NCBI GenBank assembly: GCA_001662655.1
Contig: KV460215.1
Length of the DNA: 64,000 bases
From: Pseudogymnoascus verrucosus
Taxonomy: Eukaryota
Strand: one strand, 5' to 3'
This document shows positions 3,201 through 17,532 of the stretch, one piece after another. A program made the position numbers and the translations under genes. The notes below the pieces were generated by a model, which was not told where the DNA came from, ran no database searches, and saw nothing but the letters and a program-made list of their open reading frames with translations. The number at the start of each line of letters is the position of its first letter. The first letter of the stretch is position 1.

Positions 3201-6200
3201 TCCATGGCGGTCGATAGCCCCAAGTCGTTGATCCGTAACTGGGATCATGCCTCCCATTTCGGCTGCAAATGATCTTCCAAGTGATATGTGCCCGTACGCT
3301 CCGTCATCATCGTACTCTGATAGGTACGTTTGCAAGAGACCCTTAATATCAAGCGGCGCGATGTTGACGACATTCATCATCCATACCTTGGCCTTCTTGT
3401 AGAGGGTGTTCAGCGTTTTACCTCTGAATTCGAAGTTATCTCCGAGTTGGATTGTGACCTTGCTGCGCGCGGAGGTGTAGGACGACTTCCACTCGTATTC
3501 GTCCGTTTCGGCCTCCAGACAGCTGACCCACATGAGTGAGAGTAGCTCAAGAAGCGCAAACAATGATGATCTTTGACAAAGCGCTGACGTGACGTTCGAC
3601 AATATTTTGTCAGCGCATGCAGTAGCTGCCTGTTGGACCCTCTCAATACGATGGCAACAGCCACAGAAGATTGAAACGAGTTGCTCGGCCACACACGGCG
3701 CTGAAAAGGCTGGGTTCACGCCTGACATGGCCTTCCGTAGGTAGGTGTCAACCACGGACATAGTGATAGCCTCCATGACACTGCTCATATTGCCTGTCCT
3801 CATGCCAGGCTCAAGGAAGTAGATCATGGCTTTTGTACAGTCGCCGGAATCGGCGCGCAGTGTCTCAACGAGGTAGGCTGTATGCAAGAATATGGTCTTG
3901 CGATAGCTGAGGCTGCGTATCTCGCCAGCCTTGGACGGGATTAACGAGGTTAGTCGTTTCTTCTGTATATTCTCATGTTCTGAGTTCATGCCTCTTCGGA
4001 GAACACTGTTGAGTTCGATATCGCTTTCCAGTTGCTCTCCCCTCTGCTCTGTGACCAAGGGTTTGGAGTTTACGGCCAGAAGACGGAGCTCGTCGAGATA
4101 TTGCCTCCCCCTCTCAGTGCAAGTAGTGAAGCCATGAACAACCATATTGAACCAAGCGTCTCGTACGAGTGCCCAAATATCATCGTCAGTAGTTTCATCT
4201 TTGCCTAGGTTGTTGGCTGACATCAACAATGCCAAAGGTTGAACCAGGGTCCCAATCTCTCTTGCTGCACTCTCAACGTCCGACTCGCGGGTGTGATGCA
4301 ATTGGTGCACATCGCCTCGGCTGATGATTGTTTCAAGGAGATACTCAAAATAAATATCGTAAGCCGGCGAACCCTTCTTCAGAGTTGAAGAGAGATAGTT
4401 CCTTGTCTTCAATAGGGCGGCCAACAAGCTCTCATTTTCGTCCAGCAGTGCCTCTTGGGTTAACCTGCTATAGAGTTTGAGGAGCGATTTCAACTCAACG
4501 GGAGCTCCCGTTGACGCCAGAACAGCTGCCTCGTAGATGATGGCCGCATCGACAGCAGTGTCAATTTTAGTGATTTTCTGGAGAAGCATACTTTGGGCAA
4601 GCGCCGTTATCTTGTCATCGGCGCAGCTCTCGGCTATGACACGAATGGCCTTGATGACATTTCCATATACGACAGCAACCTCCAGCTCGCCCGCAGCAGT
4701 CAAAGATATGGCACTACCCGTCTGCTTGACCCCATAAAAGGCGGGGCTGGCATGACCATTGGCTGTCTCGCCTCTGGTTTGATTTGCAACAACTCTTTCC
4801 GTGCTTGTGATGGGTGTCAGGACATTCCCAAGCGAATAGAGAGTTGTGATCACGGCATCCTCGGAGAGTAAACGCAGCACAAATGCCAAGCAGGTTGATG
4901 CCACGGCAACGGTCTCGCCTCGAGGAGAGCCTTGCACGATGAACCGTGGGAGGATTCTGCTCATGTTTGGCGCTAAACTGGGAGAAATCTGCGCGACCAA
5001 TGCCATGGAACGAAGCACAACATTCGCCAATGTCTCGTCGGCCATCTGGATTGGATCAGAAAGAGTTTCTTCCAGCCAGATCATAAGGCTCTCTGCATCA
5101 GCCACGTCGTCATTGAAGGTGACGCAGTTGAGATAGCAAGTCAAAGCGCCCGCCTTTACAGCGAAGGCAATTCGCTGTTGCCATGCAGATCCAATTCTGA
5201 GGTAGTCGGCACCATCCTCCAGCTTATTCATTTCCTCGGTAACGAATTCAGCCATGGTCTCGATGCTAGGTAATGACTCCTCTGCAGTGTGCGATGTAAG
5301 CGGGCGAGGCATCGTGTCGCCCATCATTAACTCAAGGATGCAGTTGTCTCTGAGCGTTTTCGTATCCGCGATAAGGAGAGATGATGTCGCGACCAGAAGC
5401 CACATAAAGCTTCGCTGTAGCAGCATAGCCCCAAGTGGACGACCGGTGGCAGCATAGTGTCGAACATGTCTCTTCCACTCCTTAATCTCGCGGTTTGTAG
5501 ATTGGTAGTTGCGGATCCTCGAGAATGCAGTCTCGACCGCCACCAGGAAGTCCTCGGAGAGGACTCTCTTAACAACTGTAATTAAGGCGAGCCTCTCACC
5601 GGCCGTCCAAAAGTTGGCTTGTATCGTGGCTGCATCAAGGAATCCCAGCAGAGCGATTGCTACTCTGGCAACATTGATCGCATCCTCAACATCCCCAATC
5701 TCCTCCTTTCCGACTGCAGATTCCTGTCTGGAAATGACTGCCTTCGCGGTATACTGGCATCTGTCGAGATACGCTGTGAAGTTCTTCGATATGGCGCTCT
5801 GTAGACCAGGGTGGTTTATGCCCAGTGACAAGAGGGCGCTGGTGAGGTTGAAATTCAGCGACTCGATGGGCGACGGCTCAATCTCCCTGAAAAAAGGGGA
5901 GGTGACGAAGACCTGGGTGTGCGCTTCGAGGGTATATGGCGCCAGCTGCGCAGCAAGTCTCTCGGCACTTTGATAATCCTGAAGAAGTGGCGCGGCCTTG
6001 CATAATGCGAGTAGGACTTCGAATTCCCTAATGTTCTGGGGAAGCAAGTCAGTAACGTCGCAATATGCGCTCAGCTTGAATCAACGTACCATAGCCACTC
6101 CCCCTAGGGGGATATTATTGTCCTCGTCCGCATGGCCGTTGACTGCAGCCTTCGAAGTCGAACGAGAAGGGAATATATTATAGAGTCGCTCCAAATCAGG

Positions 6201-11192: not shown

Positions 11193-12032
11193 TTTGTCGG
11201 TTTAGGAAGAGATATGAGAGTCTTTTGCAGGATTCAGAATGACTTCAGTCGGAGGAAGTATATATGGTCGTCGACAGAGGATTAACAAGTGTGAACTGCG
11301 CCGTCGAGTGGCAATGTGATGTGCGGCTGAAGTTGAATTGAGGCGTTGCGTCCCGCGTCCTGTTTACTGGTCTACCAATAACTTCCAACTGTGGCTTGCT
11401 TACGCTTTGAGGATCCTAAGCGCACAATTCCTTGGACAGTAACTCAGCTGACAGGAGAAGTGGAAATATAGAGAGGCCGGGTATATTTGGGAATTGAAAA
11501 GAGCACGAGCGAGGAGGAGGAAAGCTGAAAATAGAATCGGCGGCGTGGTAGATTCCCCACAATATTGACACCTAGTAAGGCCCTTTCTTGGCAAGGCTGT
11601 CAATTATGGATTCCTGGTTCGGGGCTGAATAGTCTAGGATCTGCAGAAAGCGAACTCTGGTACTCGGTCTCTCGAAGTTCAATGGGGAGTTATCGGGATG
11701 AGTAGAGAAGTGGCGTGGTGAAATGATTCCTAAAGATCAATCCGTATATATAAATCTCTCTCCCATCAGCGTGTTAATTGGCAAAATATAACAACGCCAA
11801 CTATTGTGAAGTGCTCTCCTAGAGGGGCCAACAGGGCCAAGATGGAGAATGGCCCCTGTGCTACTAGTAGATGCCGCCCTTGCCGGATTATTTTTTGGTC
11901 TCTTTTGTCTTGGCTAGACGGAGCCAGTTCCTACGGTGGTGGTACGTACCTTTTATACGCTCTGGCCATATTTTAGTAGGGCAAAAATGATATGTTCCCA
12001 CTAAAAATTAATGAGAAACGCAAAAAAATGAA

Positions 12033-12119
12033 CTCCCTCGGGTGGGCTCGAACCACCAACCTCTCGATAACAGAATCTTGCTAACAGTCGAACGCGCTAG
12101 CCAATTGCGCCACGAGGGA
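12033..12119 (-). tRNA. tRNA-Asn(GTT) with ~13-nt intron
   Basis: Minus strand: TCCCTCG acceptor stem pairs with CGAGGGA+G; D arm TGGCGCAATTGGCTAGCGCG; anticodon arm TTCGA-CT-GTT-A / intron GCAAGATTCTGTT / ATCGAG; T loop GGTTCGAGCCC; T7 Pol III terminator at 12022-12028. Confidence 0.95.
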
Positions 12120-12498
12120 CTTTCCTGTATGAGTGAGCTTTTGTAAATCAAGACTATATACCAGTGTCATTTCAGTTCAGACGTCCGCCTGCGAAAACTA
12201 CGACATGGTGATGGCTAACTAGAACATATACTTGTTCTCCACAGAGCCAGAGCAGTCACGTGGTTGCACGTGGTTGCCCATGAAAACCACGTGACTGATT
12301 TCAATTGCTCCCATCCCTGTACCCGATATCGAGTGTAAAACGCTTAACTAGTTAGACTTAACATCGTAATCCCCGGACCCACAAAGCCAAAGCCAATGAC
12401 TATTCCACCGAAGGACGAGTGTTCTTTCAGTCCACCCAGCGCTCTCTAAGAACCGCTTCTGGCAACCTTCCTCTTAAGCACGATCTCTGGTGGAGCTT

Positions 12499-13309
12499 TT
12501 ACACATGATGCTCTCTTGTTATATCTCGTTTACTGCATCCTCTCCTGATTCCACTTGTGACGAACCTCGACTGGTGCATCTTAAACTCGTCGTACAAGAC
12601 GAGACTAAGCCAGATAGACACAAAAAAACCCAGGAGGACGTAGTTTCTAATATACGACCCAGTGGATACTATTACATTAGTCTGGGCCAGCTGAAAACCT
12701 AGACCGCTGTTGATCATGCCTAGGATAATTGCACCACGTCCTATCCATCGGTGCAGGTAGGCGAAGATGCTCTTGTCCCCTCTCTTCTTAAAATGTCGGT
12801 GCTGAAGGATACCCATGATGGGTTGGAAGACGATAATGGTGCAAACGACGATGAAGCCAATGACCACATGGGCATGCACAGGGTGCCTAAGGTAGCCGAG
12901 ATCTTGACCGATTCTAATCCCAAGGGCCATTCCGCCGACCATCATAACGGAGCCTAGCACCTGGATAGGGACGTGGATCGCCATGACCTTCTTCTTAAGG
13001 TATGTATTCTTTAAGTAAGGAACACGATCAATGGGCAGGTGGATGGAGATTGCGCCCAGGGGAAAAAGTACAATGAAAACAATCGACATAATGCAGGCAT
13101 GCGCGTTTCGTTTCCGGTTAAAGATTTCGAAGGAATCGAGATTCCGCTTCTGGTGGACGTCTCTTGCATTGCGCTGGTCATGAACCTCCTGGCCAAAAAC
13201 AATCTCCGATGCTTGATTGCAGGTTAGACAGTTGCTCCCATCTTCTTCTTGTCGACTTACTAAATGCTAATATAAGCGCCGCCAGTGCGAGTCTGTGGAT
13301 CCTCATCAT
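12499..13309 (-). CDS. Cytochrome b561-family membrane protein with N-terminal signal peptide (no DOMON domain seen)
   Basis: Spliced model MMRIHRLALAALILAF/TSEIVFGQ...NAHACIMSIVFIVLFPLG...AIHVPIQ...HAHVVIG...YLHRWIGR gives the four-His b561 pattern and about 5 hydrophobic helices. One intron at about 13212-13260. Confidence 0.8.
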
Positions 13310-13419
13310 GATTAGACTTGTTAATTCAATCCTAAGGTTCTCAAAATCCGAAGAAGAAAGTATGCGAGAGAAATATTGCCGGGCATCAGAGCAAAGATGG
13401 TGACCTCTTGGGTTCGCAT

Positions 13420-13581
13420 CGATGCTGTTTTATCAGCTTTCGTTTGACACGCCGTAGAACAGCTCGGGTACGCTCATATCCGAGCTTCGAAGGCCGCGTA
13501 CGATGCTGTTTTATCAACTTTCGTTTGACACGCCGTAGAACAGCTCGGATACGATCGTATCCGAGCTTCGAAGGCCGCGTA
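13420..13581. repeat. 81-bp direct tandem repeat (2 copies) containing a palindrome
   Basis: CGATGCTGTTTTATCA...GAAGGCCGCGTA at 13420 and 13501; copy 2 holds the perfect palindrome AGCTCGGATACGATCGTATCCGAGCT (13542-13567). Confidence 0.95.
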
Positions 13582-14022
13582 GGCTGACAAATTGCTGATA
13601 AAATGCTGATGAGCAAGTCCATTGCGTTGAGAAAAAGCATTAGCAGGTTAGACAAGGGGGTCCATTATTTGGTAGCGTGGGAGACGGATGAGCACAGCTT
13701 GCCACTTTGTCTACAAACCTCTTTTAGAAAACCGCGGTTTTCTAAGGCGGCAATAGCAGCTAGGCAGTAATTAGGTATGTGGTAATACATATGTAGGTCA
13801 CTCTGACGTAGAGTGTGGCCCTCCTAGAGAGTACCTACCTCACCCAAAATCCATCGAATAGAGGAAAGTCCCCACGTCATAAATATCTGTTGTTCTACCC
13901 TTTCGACTTAAAAATCCCAACCTGCCCCGAACCTTTCTCGAACCTATAAGAGTTACTTTAACGGGTATCAATCAACAAACTTCTAGACTGCCTCTTTCTA
14001 GCTTCAAATAATATAATTTAAT

Positions 14023-14802
14023 ATGCATTTCTCAAGCAAGCCACTCTTTCTCTCTCTGTTTCCATTTGCCCTCGCGCAGTATGGTGGAGGTGGAGGAACC
14101 GCAAGTAGTTCCACCACAACCTCTGTAGCGTCTGCAACAACATCCTCTGCTCCCGGGGTGCAAACCGTAACCGTCGGTGATAACAATGCGATCGCATTCT
14201 CGCCAGACACTATTACAGCGGCCGTTGGGTCTAGTATTGAATTTGTATTCTTCCCGCCTATCCATTCTGTCACCCAGTCCACTTTCGAGTCTCCATGCGC
14301 CCCTTTGGCCAATGGAACAGGATTCTGGAGTGGAGCAATTACTACTGCAAGTGGACAAAACGCCAACGTTTTTACTCTCATCGTTAATGATACAAATCCA
14401 ATTTGGTTTTTCTGTGCAACCCCACTTCATTGTGAGACTGGCATGGCTGGGGTCATTAATCCTTCGTAGGTTTCGAATGTCGCATTCGTCTTATAGCAAC
14501 GACTAATAAGATCATAACTTAGATCCAACGCTTCAGAATCGCTTGACCAATACAAAGCTAGCGCTGCCAAAGTTTCAAACCCGCCTACCCCGTCGGTCGT
14601 TCAAGGTGGCAGTATTGGGCCACCTCAAGCCGCGAGCAGTAGCTCATCAGCCGCGAGCAGTAGCTCATCAACCTCGTCAGCAGCCACTACGACCCCGACA
14701 AAGAGTGCTGGCGTAAATAGCTTCGAGAGTAGAGGTAGTGCTCAGTGGGTCCTTATGGCACTCGGTCTATTAGCTGTTGGGATTGGGGGTTTGATCATTT
14801 GA
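14023..14802 (+). CDS. Secreted GPI-anchored cupredoxin-like Ser/Thr-rich protein
   Basis: Signal peptide; VTVG..FSPDTITAAVG..FVF...HSVTQSTFESPC and IWFFCATPLHCETGMAGVINP; intron 14466-14522; Ser-rich linker and hydrophobic C-terminus WVLMALGLLAVGIGGLII*. Confidence 0.85.
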
Positions 14803-15541
14803 GCATGGCCTCGTATTTTAGCCTACCCTGGAGGTTAATATGAATTTGGCTAGGTTTAACAAAAATACAATAATTACGTGAGCACATACGCAGGTTATAA
14901 ATTATTGCACGCCGCTGGGCTTTTCGATTTCGCTTTCAGCGGCCTTGATTGAATGATCAAACCTGGCCCCTGTGTTTTTGGGGGCGCCATGTTTGAGGGT
15001 CAGATTTTAGCGCAATTACTAGTGAAGGGTCTCAACCCTGCTCACTAATAAAGTGCTAGATAAATTTCGCTGCTGTAAGTTTTTACTAGACGGATAGAAA
15101 GGAATTCTAAACTGGAATGGATCTGAAAAATCATCGATTTTTGTATGGGTATAACTGAAACACAGTAAAGTGATGGCACGTAACCCAGGGTTGCAGATAT
15201 CATAGATTCGGAATGTACCGACGGAAATTGCGTCATCTTTTTGATTGAAAGCTTCGGGGGTTTCCAGGCAGTTGTTTACTTTCGCGGGTGTGGCTAACAA
15301 TGTTTTATGTCGACAGAGGATCGGAAAATATCATGATTAGGAAAGCTATAAAAGCGATAATGATTCTGCTACTATTAATGGCTTGAGGTGCCTAAAACTG
15401 ATGGAGGTATGATGGCGGAGTAATGAAAGTTCTAATCCTGGTCAAAAAGTCGACAGCTTTAGAGAGCATTAGTAGTAAAGTTCAAATAGACGTCTTTATT
15501 CTCCTAAGATACATCATCAACCTGAAGTCTTATTAGATCTA

Positions 15542-17297
15542 TTAAACCCTCTCAATAATAACCGCCTCGGAAGACCCGATAGAAACCACTCCATTTGTGA
15601 CTTTCTCAACAACCTTGGCCCCGCTTAGGTGCCCATTTCCATCCACGGTTTGACCTGCCCAAGTCAAGCCTTGGGTAGCAATGGAAGAGGAACCCGATAG
15701 TCTCTTAACAGTGAAATCCTTCCCAAACTCAGCAGACACGTCAAAAGTCTTGTATGTGCGAGGGTTAGTGCCATTAATATAGTCGAGGTTGAGGATGACC
15801 AGCTTTTGAAGGTTGGACGAGGAAGAATACACAGCGTAATGTGCAAGGTCAGTAGCATCTAGGGAAGGTATTGGTGCAATTTCTGGCGTGCGGCCAAGAT
15901 TTGATACAAGGTCGGCGAATAAAAGAAATCCGTAATACCTAGAAACAGTCCAGGTCAGAAATGATGGGAATGGGAATGGGCACGGGCTGCTTTAGAAAAT
16001 ACTCACAGTCCACTTGCATGTGCAGCTGTGCCATTAACTGCAATTGGCTGCCATACACTGTAAGGAAAACCGACTCCGTTGTGGAAGTACAAGCCATCCA
16101 TGCCAGCAGTCGCACCGGTCAACGAGTAATCCAACATCCAGAGTGCTGCTCCAAGAGTGTCAGAGACACCTGCCAATCCGTGGCAGGCAGCAGAGTTTGT
16201 TTCACCCATAAAGAACTGAGCGCCCACAGACTTAGCAGCAGATATCGCTGATGTGAATTGTTGCACCATTTGAAACGTATGAATATGGTTCAAAAGTACC
16301 GGGAGAGACACCAGAGCTGCATCTGCCGCTAGACGCCCAAAATTATCAGTAAGAAAACACGGCGACAAAGCAATATAAGGAACTTACGCGTGCAAACATC
16401 TCCGAAATAACAATGGTTGCTAAAGATCTTAATCTCGCTCACAACTTCTTTAATTCCCATCTTAATCAATGAACTTATAGAGAAGTCGCCTTGATCAACT
16501 GGAGCATTGGCAAAGGATGCGGACATATATCCGGCGAATCTCTTTGCCTCGGTCTTGCTTAATGAAGCAGTTATCTTTGTTAGGAAGCTCGCTGTTTGCT
16601 GAGCATAGGAAAAGATGTCCCAGCTCAATGGTCGAAATTGCCTGTAGGCGGAATAAAAGTCGGGTTCATTACCTAGCTCGTAGGCTGTAATTCGTGAGAG
16701 ATTCATGTATTGTTCAACAGCTTTGAACTCCGCCAAGGTGTTCGAAATGTTGTTTTCGCCAAAGTTCAGTCCAAATGTATACTCCTGCTCACTCGGAACG
16801 TTCTCGTTGAGAACTCTGAACAGATTCTTATTAAAAGTGACGTTAGCAGCTTCGGTATTGGCAAATAGACCTATTTCGCTATTGCTGGCGAATGTATTGT
16901 TGAGGGTTTGAGTACAGTCATCGCAGTAATTCGCAACATCCTGGGTATCACCACCGATGCGGATCCTCGGCGGAAAACCTGAAAGATCCTGGATGTTCTG
17001 AAGGAGGCGAAGAGACAGCGCGTTTTCTTGGTTAACGTCGCCTAGGAAGCCAGTGATCCAGCAGAATCTATATTTTACACGTTAGTGTGTGTATCGTTAA
17101 ACTTGGAAAAGTAAGACAAACTCAATGGATAGTCCCAGGAGTTGACGGTTCAATGGACTGGCAGACGTAGCAGCAGCCCGCTTGTCAAAAGTAACGACTT
17201 CATGGGATAGTTGAGCTGCAGTGAAGCTTGGCTGGGTCGTACTCAGACAGAGGGCGACAGGGAGCAATTGCACCAGGGCAAAGAGGATTGGAGACAT
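15542..17297 (-). CDS. Secreted glycoside hydrolase family 79 (beta-glucuronidase-like)
   Basis: Signal peptide; LSIE/F, PPRIRIGGDTQD, acid/base motif YELGNEPD, nucleophile motif MGETNS, GVSDTLGAALW..DY; three introns. Confidence 0.88.
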
Positions 17298-17532
17298 GAT
17301 GACTTTAGGATAATAGACTTTCAGTCTCGCCGATTGAAGACTCAGTAGATATGGATGCCAAGTCCTTAATTAGCGAAACTACTTATATTTATATTCTATA
17401 GTACATGGCTCAATAGTTATGTCGGCAACCAAGCTTTTGGGGTGGATTGGAAATGAGCCCAAAAAGGAAACTAAGGAGCACTCAAATGCGGGGTGAAGTG
17501 GAGCCGTTCGAGCGTTATTTCCCCTCCTTTGT

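Follow-up and report, generated by a model that had tools for sequence, protein, structure and literature searches.

A divergent cytochrome b561–cupredoxin gene pair in Pseudogymnoascus: a candidate, lineage-restricted electron-transfer link at the cell surface

Described systems and the gene pair

The plant protein HYP1 exports electrons across the plasma membrane in an ascorbate-dependent manner and reduces ferric and cupric substrates directly; it consists of a signal peptide and a five-transmembrane (TM) b561 domain with apical and cytoplasmic pairs of His residues (PMC10784544). AIR12 of flowering plants is a single glycosylphosphatidylinositol (GPI)-anchored DOMON haem-b domain, related to the domain that CYBDOM proteins carry in cis (PMC10784544). 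Here we analyse a 64-kb window (the whole stretch of DNA under study, 64,000 nucleotides) from a Pseudogymnoascus species, in which a gene for a cytochrome b561 with no recognisable DOMON domain stands head to head with a gene for a predicted surface cupredoxin, a type-1 copper protein. Our preferred reading, which we put forward tentatively, is that the two genes are linked in function, facultatively and in some lineages only, most likely through direct electron transfer from b561 to cupredoxin, and do not form an obligate two-gene machine.

The window b561 resembles the plant CYBDOMs HYP1 and CRR in its predicted signal peptide and outward N-terminus, five-helix b561 core and order of His residues. 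It differs from them in being fungal and in lacking a DOMON domain, and the acceptor proposed for it is a copper protein with a gene of its own, beside that of b561. The uncharacterised fungal fusions of a CDH-cyt (AA8-like) or DOMON domain to b561 are alike in their b561 part (E values of 1e-52 to 1e-24 against the family profile), whereas the window protein has no cytochrome domain. Six-helix b561 proteins (Arabidopsis CYBASC1, 4o6y; human Dcytb, 5zle) are its best structural matches and carry the same four His on successive helices, but the window protein is without the first of their six helices.

The cupredoxin can likewise be set beside known proteins. AIR12 is a stand-alone redox carrier tethered by GPI at the outer face, as is predicted for the cupredoxin, but the centre of AIR12 is haem b and that of the cupredoxin a predicted type-1 copper site. 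AIR12 is fed by plasma-membrane b561 proteins, and we know of no adjacency between AIR12 and b561 genes. Plant phytocyanins (umecyanin, cucumber basic protein/plantacyanin and stellacyanin) share with the cupredoxin the Cys-x4-His-x4-Met motif, an extra Cys pair, a Ser-rich stalk and a GPI-type tail, and several homologues of the window cupredoxin are labelled 'Phytocyanin domain-containing' in UniProt. Nevertheless, the profile match to phytocyanins is weak and no better than that to pseudoazurin, and Foldseek ranks plastocyanin, auracyanin and pseudoazurin first. A preliminary description of this locus knew of no characterised fungal system of the kind, and the literature agrees: we found no paper that pairs a fungal b561 with a cupredoxin, subscription journals lying outside the coverage of the search.

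The b561 gene occupies 12499..13309 on the minus strand and encodes 253 amino acids (aa) in a spliced model built from the sequence. Exon 1 (13309..13261, minus strand) encodes the signal-type N-terminus MMRIHRLALAALILAF plus 1 nt. It is followed by a 49-nt intron (13260..13212, minus strand; GTAAGT...CTAAC...AAG) and by exon 2 (13211..12499, minus strand), which includes the stop codon and encodes five predicted TM helices. The intron lies outside the cover of RNA contigs and was judged by matching the model to a GenBank protein, VE04_05686 (P0003), with which the model agrees at 250 of 252 residues. The cupredoxin gene (14023..14802, plus strand) encodes 240 aa, also in a spliced model. Its first exon (14023..14465, plus strand) covers a signal peptide, a short Ser/Thr stretch and the type-1 copper domain; the second (14523..14802, plus strand) encodes a stalk rich in Ser, Thr, Ala and Pro and a hydrophobic GPI-type tail, a layout shared by homologues. 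The model equals VE04_05687 (P0123) at 239 of 240 residues. Both proteins are 99-100% identical to their counterparts VE04_05686 and VE04_05687 in Pseudogymnoascus sp. 24MN13.

The region holds two real genes with a common divergent promoter region of 713 bp (13310..14022, no strand assigned). This length, measured between the head-to-head start codons, agrees with the spacing of about 710 bp given in the preliminary description. Transcript data, which consist of contigs from soil metatranscriptome libraries, show that the cupredoxin gene is transcribed and spliced and confirm its 57-nt GT..AG intron (14466..14522, plus strand): an 860-nt contig of run X1 joins 13966-14465 to 14523-14882, and a contig of run X11 has exactly the same joint from 14465 to 14523. 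For the b561 gene, contig cover is limited to the 3' end, where short contigs of X1 (12492-12689) and X10 (12380-12547) are found, and the uncovered stretches (the 5' half and the intergenic region) are uninformative. Parts of both genes are present among the contigs of X1 and X10, which lends the pair weak support.

The two predicted redox proteins

The b561 residues below are numbered according to the 236-aa exon-2 protein (P0001); full-length numbers are obtained by adding 17. The preliminary description had noted four helix His residues, in NAH, AIH, HAH and YLH. These are H37 (codon 13099-13101), H79 (12973-12975), H114 (12868-12870) and H153 (12751-12753), all on the minus strand, and they are invariant in an alignment of 19 family members. 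The AlphaFold model of P0001 consists of five long helices, with a predicted local distance difference test (pLDDT) score of only 66, and the four His lie one per consecutive helix within model helices 26-57, 70-104, 113-143 and 148-178. Comparison with solved b561 chains 4o6y, 4o7g and 5zle gives VIA Z-scores of 14.4, 14.1 and 13.8, with a root-mean-square deviation (rmsd) of 3.0-3.5 over 166-173 residues. The next family, NOX5, scores 12.3, a small margin that calls for caution because helical bundles generally score high. In Foldseek, the top five matches are all b561 chains, although weak (E values of 0.04-0.07). Residues 26-205 of the model superimpose on residues 40-219 of the solved chains, and P0001 therefore corresponds to helices 2-6 (TM2-TM6) of a six-helix b561.

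P0001 falls below the gathering cutoff of PF03188 (20.5 versus 23 bits, E value 6e-4), a shortfall that we ascribe to divergence and that does not exclude membership. Neither P0001 nor the family profile matches any solved b561 chain at the sequence level, where chance matches to ClpC were the only ones returned, and the assignment to b561 thus rests on the fold, the His pattern and the relatives.

The N-terminus MMRIHRLALAALILAF is hydrophobic (mean Kyte-Doolittle value 1.84), and homologues have the same N-terminus; it is of the signal type, in agreement with the signal peptide of the preliminary description. Only about 35 residues separate this segment from the first His helix, and together these features place the N-terminus of b561 outside and its C-terminus inside. 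The predicted orientation of the core would be unchanged if the N-terminal segment were an uncleaved first helix. From the order of the helices, the outer haem would be bound by H37 together with H114 and the cytoplasmic one by H79 together with H153, which matches the pairing in HYP1. Two further features of the outer segment may be mentioned. The family keeps a dibasic KR/RR site at P0001 residues 21-24 (window about 13140-13149, minus strand); it reads QKR-N/D in the majority of the 19 members and resembles a Kex2-type processing site. At residues 32-35 (window about 13107-13116, minus strand), an NRxRNAH motif directly precedes the first His helix and is kept across the family.

Close homologues of the b561 number 242 at E values of 0.001 or below, and PF03188 is precomputed in 36 of the best 120 of these. 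A profile search of 1.84 billion representatives extends the set to 1291 relatives at 0.001, 640 at 1e-10 and 35 at 1e-30. Many of the best 150 of the 1291 relatives are 300-450 aa long, with the b561 part C-terminal. We scanned 25 longer relatives, picked for a long N-terminal extension, against Pfam. In 20 of the 25, a CDH-cyt domain (PF16010) stands ahead of the b561 part, and some also match DOMON; PF03188 is recognised in 10 of the 25 (E values of 1e-4 or below), and a copper domain in none of them. In P0001 itself, Pfam finds no DOMON or CDH-cyt match at E values up to 1.

Since 20 of the 25 longer relatives scanned carry an outward haem domain, the window b561 is a DOMON-less member of a fungal CDH-cyt/DOMON-b561 clade that is, judged by its domain content, built to feed a protein-bound outer centre. 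It is predicted to be functionally like the b561 half of a CYBDOM, and is itself not a CYBDOM as it has no DOMON. With only about 35 residues outside and no DOMON, the window b561 would therefore need a separate acceptor. The preliminary description had proposed that the cupredoxin replaces the fused DOMON/haem acceptor. As regards the domain that is replaced, this is borne out by the longer relatives, in which a haem domain is usual, and by the window b561, in which there is none; the replacement itself is part of the route considered below.

Cupredoxin residues are referred to the 147-aa exon-1 protein (P0002). The complete His...Cys-x4-His-x4-Met set reported in the preliminary description is found again as H81 (codon 14263-14265), C131 (14413-14415), H136 (14428-14430) and M141 (14443-14445), all on the plus strand. 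In an alignment of 21 sequences the first three are invariant, and the Met is kept in at least 90%. A second Cys pair, C92 (14296-14298, plus strand) and C137 (14431-14433, plus strand; directly after H136), is invariant in the same 21 sequences and presumably fits the disulfide pattern of phytocyanins. The axial Met is replaced by Phe in the cupredoxin of metagenome locus L002 (L002 4710-5156, minus strand; see below) and by Leu in an Oidiodendron homologue (P0146). In other blue copper proteins, replacement of the axial Met by Phe or Leu raises the redox potential.

The cupredoxin model has pLDDT values above 90 over residues 45-147. Its top Foldseek matches are auracyanin, plastocyanins and pseudoazurins (E values of 1e-6 to 1e-5), and 289 chains of the PDB match at E values of 0.001 or below. 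At the sequence level the protein is more remote: P0002 is just under the cutoff of PF00127 (20.3 versus 21.2 bits, E value 7.7e-4) and under that of PF02298 (13.8 versus 20.8 bits), and has no match to PF25489 at E values up to 1. PF00127 is precomputed in many homologues, and the family profile finds pseudoazurin (1.5e-4), umecyanin (3.7e-4), cucumber basic protein (2.2e-3) and stellacyanin (0.3) among PDB sequences. Fold model and ligand set together point to gene 2 as a single-domain type-1 cupredoxin with a predicted copper site.

The stalk that follows the copper domain consists of 66% Ser, Thr, Ala and Pro and, as a by-eye reading, ends in a GPI-like tail as the preliminary description had held: SRGSAQ is followed by the last 17 residues, which are strongly hydrophobic (mean value 2.64). 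The protein is thus predicted to be tethered at the surface, and one homologue carries the source name 'GPI-anchored cupredoxin'. Both redox centres, that of the cupredoxin and the outer one of b561, face the same compartment.

A profile search places the cupredoxin in a family of 252 clusters at 90% identity. The best 120 of these represent Leotiomycetes, Penicillium/Talaromyces, a lichen fungus and a large number of Agaricomycetes, and most bear the label 'Blue (type 1) copper domain-containing protein' or 'Cupredoxin'; neighbours in a protein atlas are clusters of 'Extracellular serine-rich protein'. A review of Agaricomycete development counts proteins that consist of a cupredoxin alone among those of unknown function (PMC10282164). 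In the papers found, single-domain fungal cupredoxins figure only as differentially expressed genes or as function-unknown proteins. Two Pseudogymnoascus sp. strains, VKM F-4520 (V502_03457, V502_01580 and V502_04343) and F-4518 (V500_04599 and V500_07746), have two or three distinct cupredoxin copies each, which suggests paralogues or mixed assemblies.

Conservation of the gene adjacency

The adjacency is not unique to the genome in which it was first described. The two genes are neighbours in all three named Pseudogymnoascus genomes for which both locus tags are known: VE04_05686/87, GMDG_01901/00 (Pseudogymnoascus destructans) and O988_09916/15. In these genomes adjacency was read from consecutive locus tags on equal-sized contigs. 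Contig sizes above 2 kb that are shared by the b561 and cupredoxin match lists are 26077, 190777, 16465 and 5548, this being a weak method of pairing; shared sizes of 922, 956 and 962 (near 1 kb) and of 3513 were taken as coincidence. A b561 (P0027) and a cupredoxin (P0132) are each encoded on a contig of 16465 bp, so that this is probably one contig.

A metagenome scan with the b561 alignment yielded 16 loci, which were searched by tblastn with the window cupredoxin and 62 homologues. The cupredoxin is present in two of the 16 (L002 and L016) and is divergent from b561 in both. In L002 it lies about 1.05 kb off, and both proteins are 79% identical to those of the window. When the 16.9 kb of L002 were compared with the whole 64-kb window by tblastx, the similarity was confined to the two genes and a block of about 65 nt. 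L002 is flanked by a short-chain dehydrogenase gene and unassigned open reading frames (ORFs), the pair in the window by a C2-domain gene and a GH79-type gene. The pair is alike and the flanks are different; the two genes have therefore remained side by side through changes in both flanks. A b561 tree of 28 rows unites the window, P. destructans, L002 and the 16465-bp contig in a single six-row clade (97/94).

L016 is more distant. Its divergent cupredoxin, with the full His/Cys/His/Met set, lies about 1.8-1.9 kb off, and no Pfam-recognisable ORF was found between the two genes. The L016 b561 is a fragment of 37 residues, 36 of which are identical to P0038, a protein that in a 35-row tree is placed outside the Pseudogymnoascus-like b561 clade, in the unresolved backbone. 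In a cupredoxin tree of 30 rows, L016 groups with Penicillium and Talaromyces (96/94) and the window with Leotiomycetes. The pair has come through rearrangement intact and turns up again in a distant lineage.

Functional readings of the pair and its flanks

In the route that we propose, the b561 would draw electrons from an ascorbate-type donor in the cytosol and deliver them at the outer face of the plasma membrane, as its family suggests. The cupredoxin would act there as the acceptor, in place of the same-chain haem domain of the relatives, and may pass single electrons to some oxidant or enzyme. On general grounds the step from b561 to cupredoxin would be downhill, since type-1 copper typically has a higher potential than the haems of b561. 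A stronger version, in which the pair is a split, copper-based CYBDOM (a DOMON-less b561 that exports cytosolic reducing power to a GPI-anchored cupredoxin encoded on the other side of a common promoter) and forms a unit predating the split between Leotiomycete-like and Eurotiomycete-like lineages, we regard as unlikely.

A number of results weigh against a link between the two genes. The cupredoxin is present in two of the four metagenome loci with at least 1.9 kb of sequence upstream of b561. It is missing from L004, where the divergent neighbour is a flavin adenine dinucleotide (FAD)-linked oxidase gene, and from L007, within 10 kb on either side; both these loci are outside the Pseudogymnoascus-like b561 clade of the 28-row tree. 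It is also found in none of the seven loci with 0.98-1.32 kb upstream (L005, L006, L008, L009, L010, L012 and L015); L007, L008 and L009 look like one organism, and five loci are too short for an adjacency call (L001, L003, L011, L013 and L014). The preliminary description had suggested a check of whether the cupredoxin is a conserved divergent neighbour; it does not accompany this b561 family in general, being adjacent in Pseudogymnoascus, L002 and L016 but not in the other two informative loci or the seven shorter ones. A single origin of the adjacency suffices in 48% of bootstrap trees of the 35-row b561 set; it is neither shown nor excluded, so the cases of adjacency may not be independent. 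The placement of the L016 cupredoxin is unsure because of its long branch (1.38). One further positive lineage versus two negative ones separates selection from slow decay of adjacency only weakly.

The taxonomic ranges of the two families point the same way. Outside Pseudogymnoascus, the taxa named among the best 120 of the 242 b561 matches are Trichoderma (10 rows), Orbilia, Arthrobotrys, Rhizodiscina and Tothia, none of which occurs among the best 120 of the 252 cupredoxin matches. Conversely, the best 120 b561 rows contain no protein from the taxa whose cupredoxins are close orthologues (Venustampulla, 75%; Oidiodendron, 61%; and others). The cupredoxin family is spread across many other fungi, and most cupredoxins therefore have another partner; clearly, the family works without a b561 of the window type in most fungi. 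Fusions of b561 and cupredoxin were not found either: the cupredoxin profile is recognised in 0 of the best 150 of 1291 b561 relatives (top score 9.1 bits, with Ser-rich bias), the b561 profile in 0 of 157 proteins of the cupredoxin set and PF03188 in 0 of the best 120 cupredoxin matches. The positive control of this search recovered 157 of 157 proteins, and the searches for cupredoxins extended to proteins of at most 450 aa. Finally, the RNA contigs are blind to expression level and co-regulation.

Almost as likely as the functional link, in our view, is that the genes are neighbours with no relation to each other. The b561 would then work alone as a surface metalloreductase or a monodehydroascorbate-type reductase, the cupredoxin would have other partners, and the adjacency would be inherited microsynteny plus one further case. 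The loci that lack the cupredoxin (two of the four informative ones and all seven partly informative ones), the discordant ranges of named taxa, the lack of fusions in our searches and the possible single origin of the adjacency would all follow from this explanation. A b561 protein can reduce metals by itself: Dcytb reduces ferric and cupric substrates. HYP1 is reported to reduce both kinds of substrate directly as well (PMC10784544). However, L002 keeps the pair despite differing flanks, and L016 shows it again with a cupredoxin of a different clade. The probability that a b561 gene lies beside one of the few cupredoxin genes by chance is small by our estimate, and the relatives of this b561 normally pass electrons to a protein-bound outer redox centre. 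These points speak against unrelated neighbours.

The genes could also serve one process under common control with no direct transfer from haem to copper: b561 would reduce Cu(II)/Fe(III), the cupredoxin would be a copper-dependent wall or surface protein, and it is the shared promoter that would be conserved. The window, L002 and L016 all have the two genes diverging from a short common region, and the intergenic regions of the window and L002 have several blocks of 12-16 nt in common; reduction of cupric substrates by b561-type proteins is also on record (PMC10784544). The regulatory sequences themselves speak against this reading. We searched with consensus motifs for Mac1, SreA, Aft1, PacC, CreA and Ace1 and found nothing above the window background; Mac1-, SreA- and Aft1-type motifs are missing from the intergenic regions of the window and L002, and the 1.77 kb of L016 hold one Mac1-type match. 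The window intergenic region contains two tandem copies of an 81-bp unit, 95% alike (13420..13581, no strand assigned), each with a near-perfect CGG-N12-CCG palindrome (at 13465 and 13546) that we take to be a Zn2Cys6-type site. The pattern occurs eight times in the whole 64-kb window. Neither the repeat nor the palindrome was found in the intergenic regions of L002 and L016, so that it is not a conserved shared control element; this counts against the functional link as well. In addition, a complete type-1 site with an axial Met points on general grounds to electron transfer and not to copper storage. We thus consider mere co-regulation improbable.

If the stronger version, the split, copper-based CYBDOM, were to hold, it would provide the first physiological electron donor for a large, functionally orphan family of fungal surface cupredoxins, the 'extracellular serine-rich proteins', and might by analogy guide work on plant phytocyanins. 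Transfer from this b561 to the neighbouring cupredoxin, if real, would be a variant of the CYBDOM/AIR12 principle and a simple, genetically tractable model of how copper redox chemistry in the fungal wall is powered, with metal reduction, radical chemistry and the supply of oxidative enzymes as candidate uses. Single-domain surface cupredoxins are common in fungi, and in plants roles for trans-plasma-membrane b561 conduits are recent, an example being HYP1 in iron and copper reduction (PMC10784544). P. destructans, which causes white-nose disease in bats, has the pair too (GMDG_01900/01901); surface redox chemistry and metal handling are of interest in this fungus. Should the genes be unrelated neighbours, the analysis would still have delineated a subfamily of b561 proteins without DOMON and confirmed both gene models.

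Some minor features surround the pair. TATA-like boxes are located near 13880 and 13945 in the intergenic region. The block of about 65 nt shared with L002 lies 3' of the cupredoxin gene (15108..15170, no strand assigned) and has the same relative position in L002 (about 4210-4280); it is possibly a 3' untranslated region or a regulatory element, and there was no Rfam or tRNA match to it in a search of 11200-15600. The next gene after the cupredoxin encodes a GH79-type glycosidase (15542-17369, minus strand; PF16862 Glyco_hydro_79C, E value 1e-18) and is not syntenic in L002. On the other side, about 380 nt past the b561 stop codon, there is a tRNA gene (12033-12119, minus strand; Rfam RF00005, 52.1 bits), for which ARAGORN gave no anticodon. 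It is 87 nt long and so probably bears an intron.

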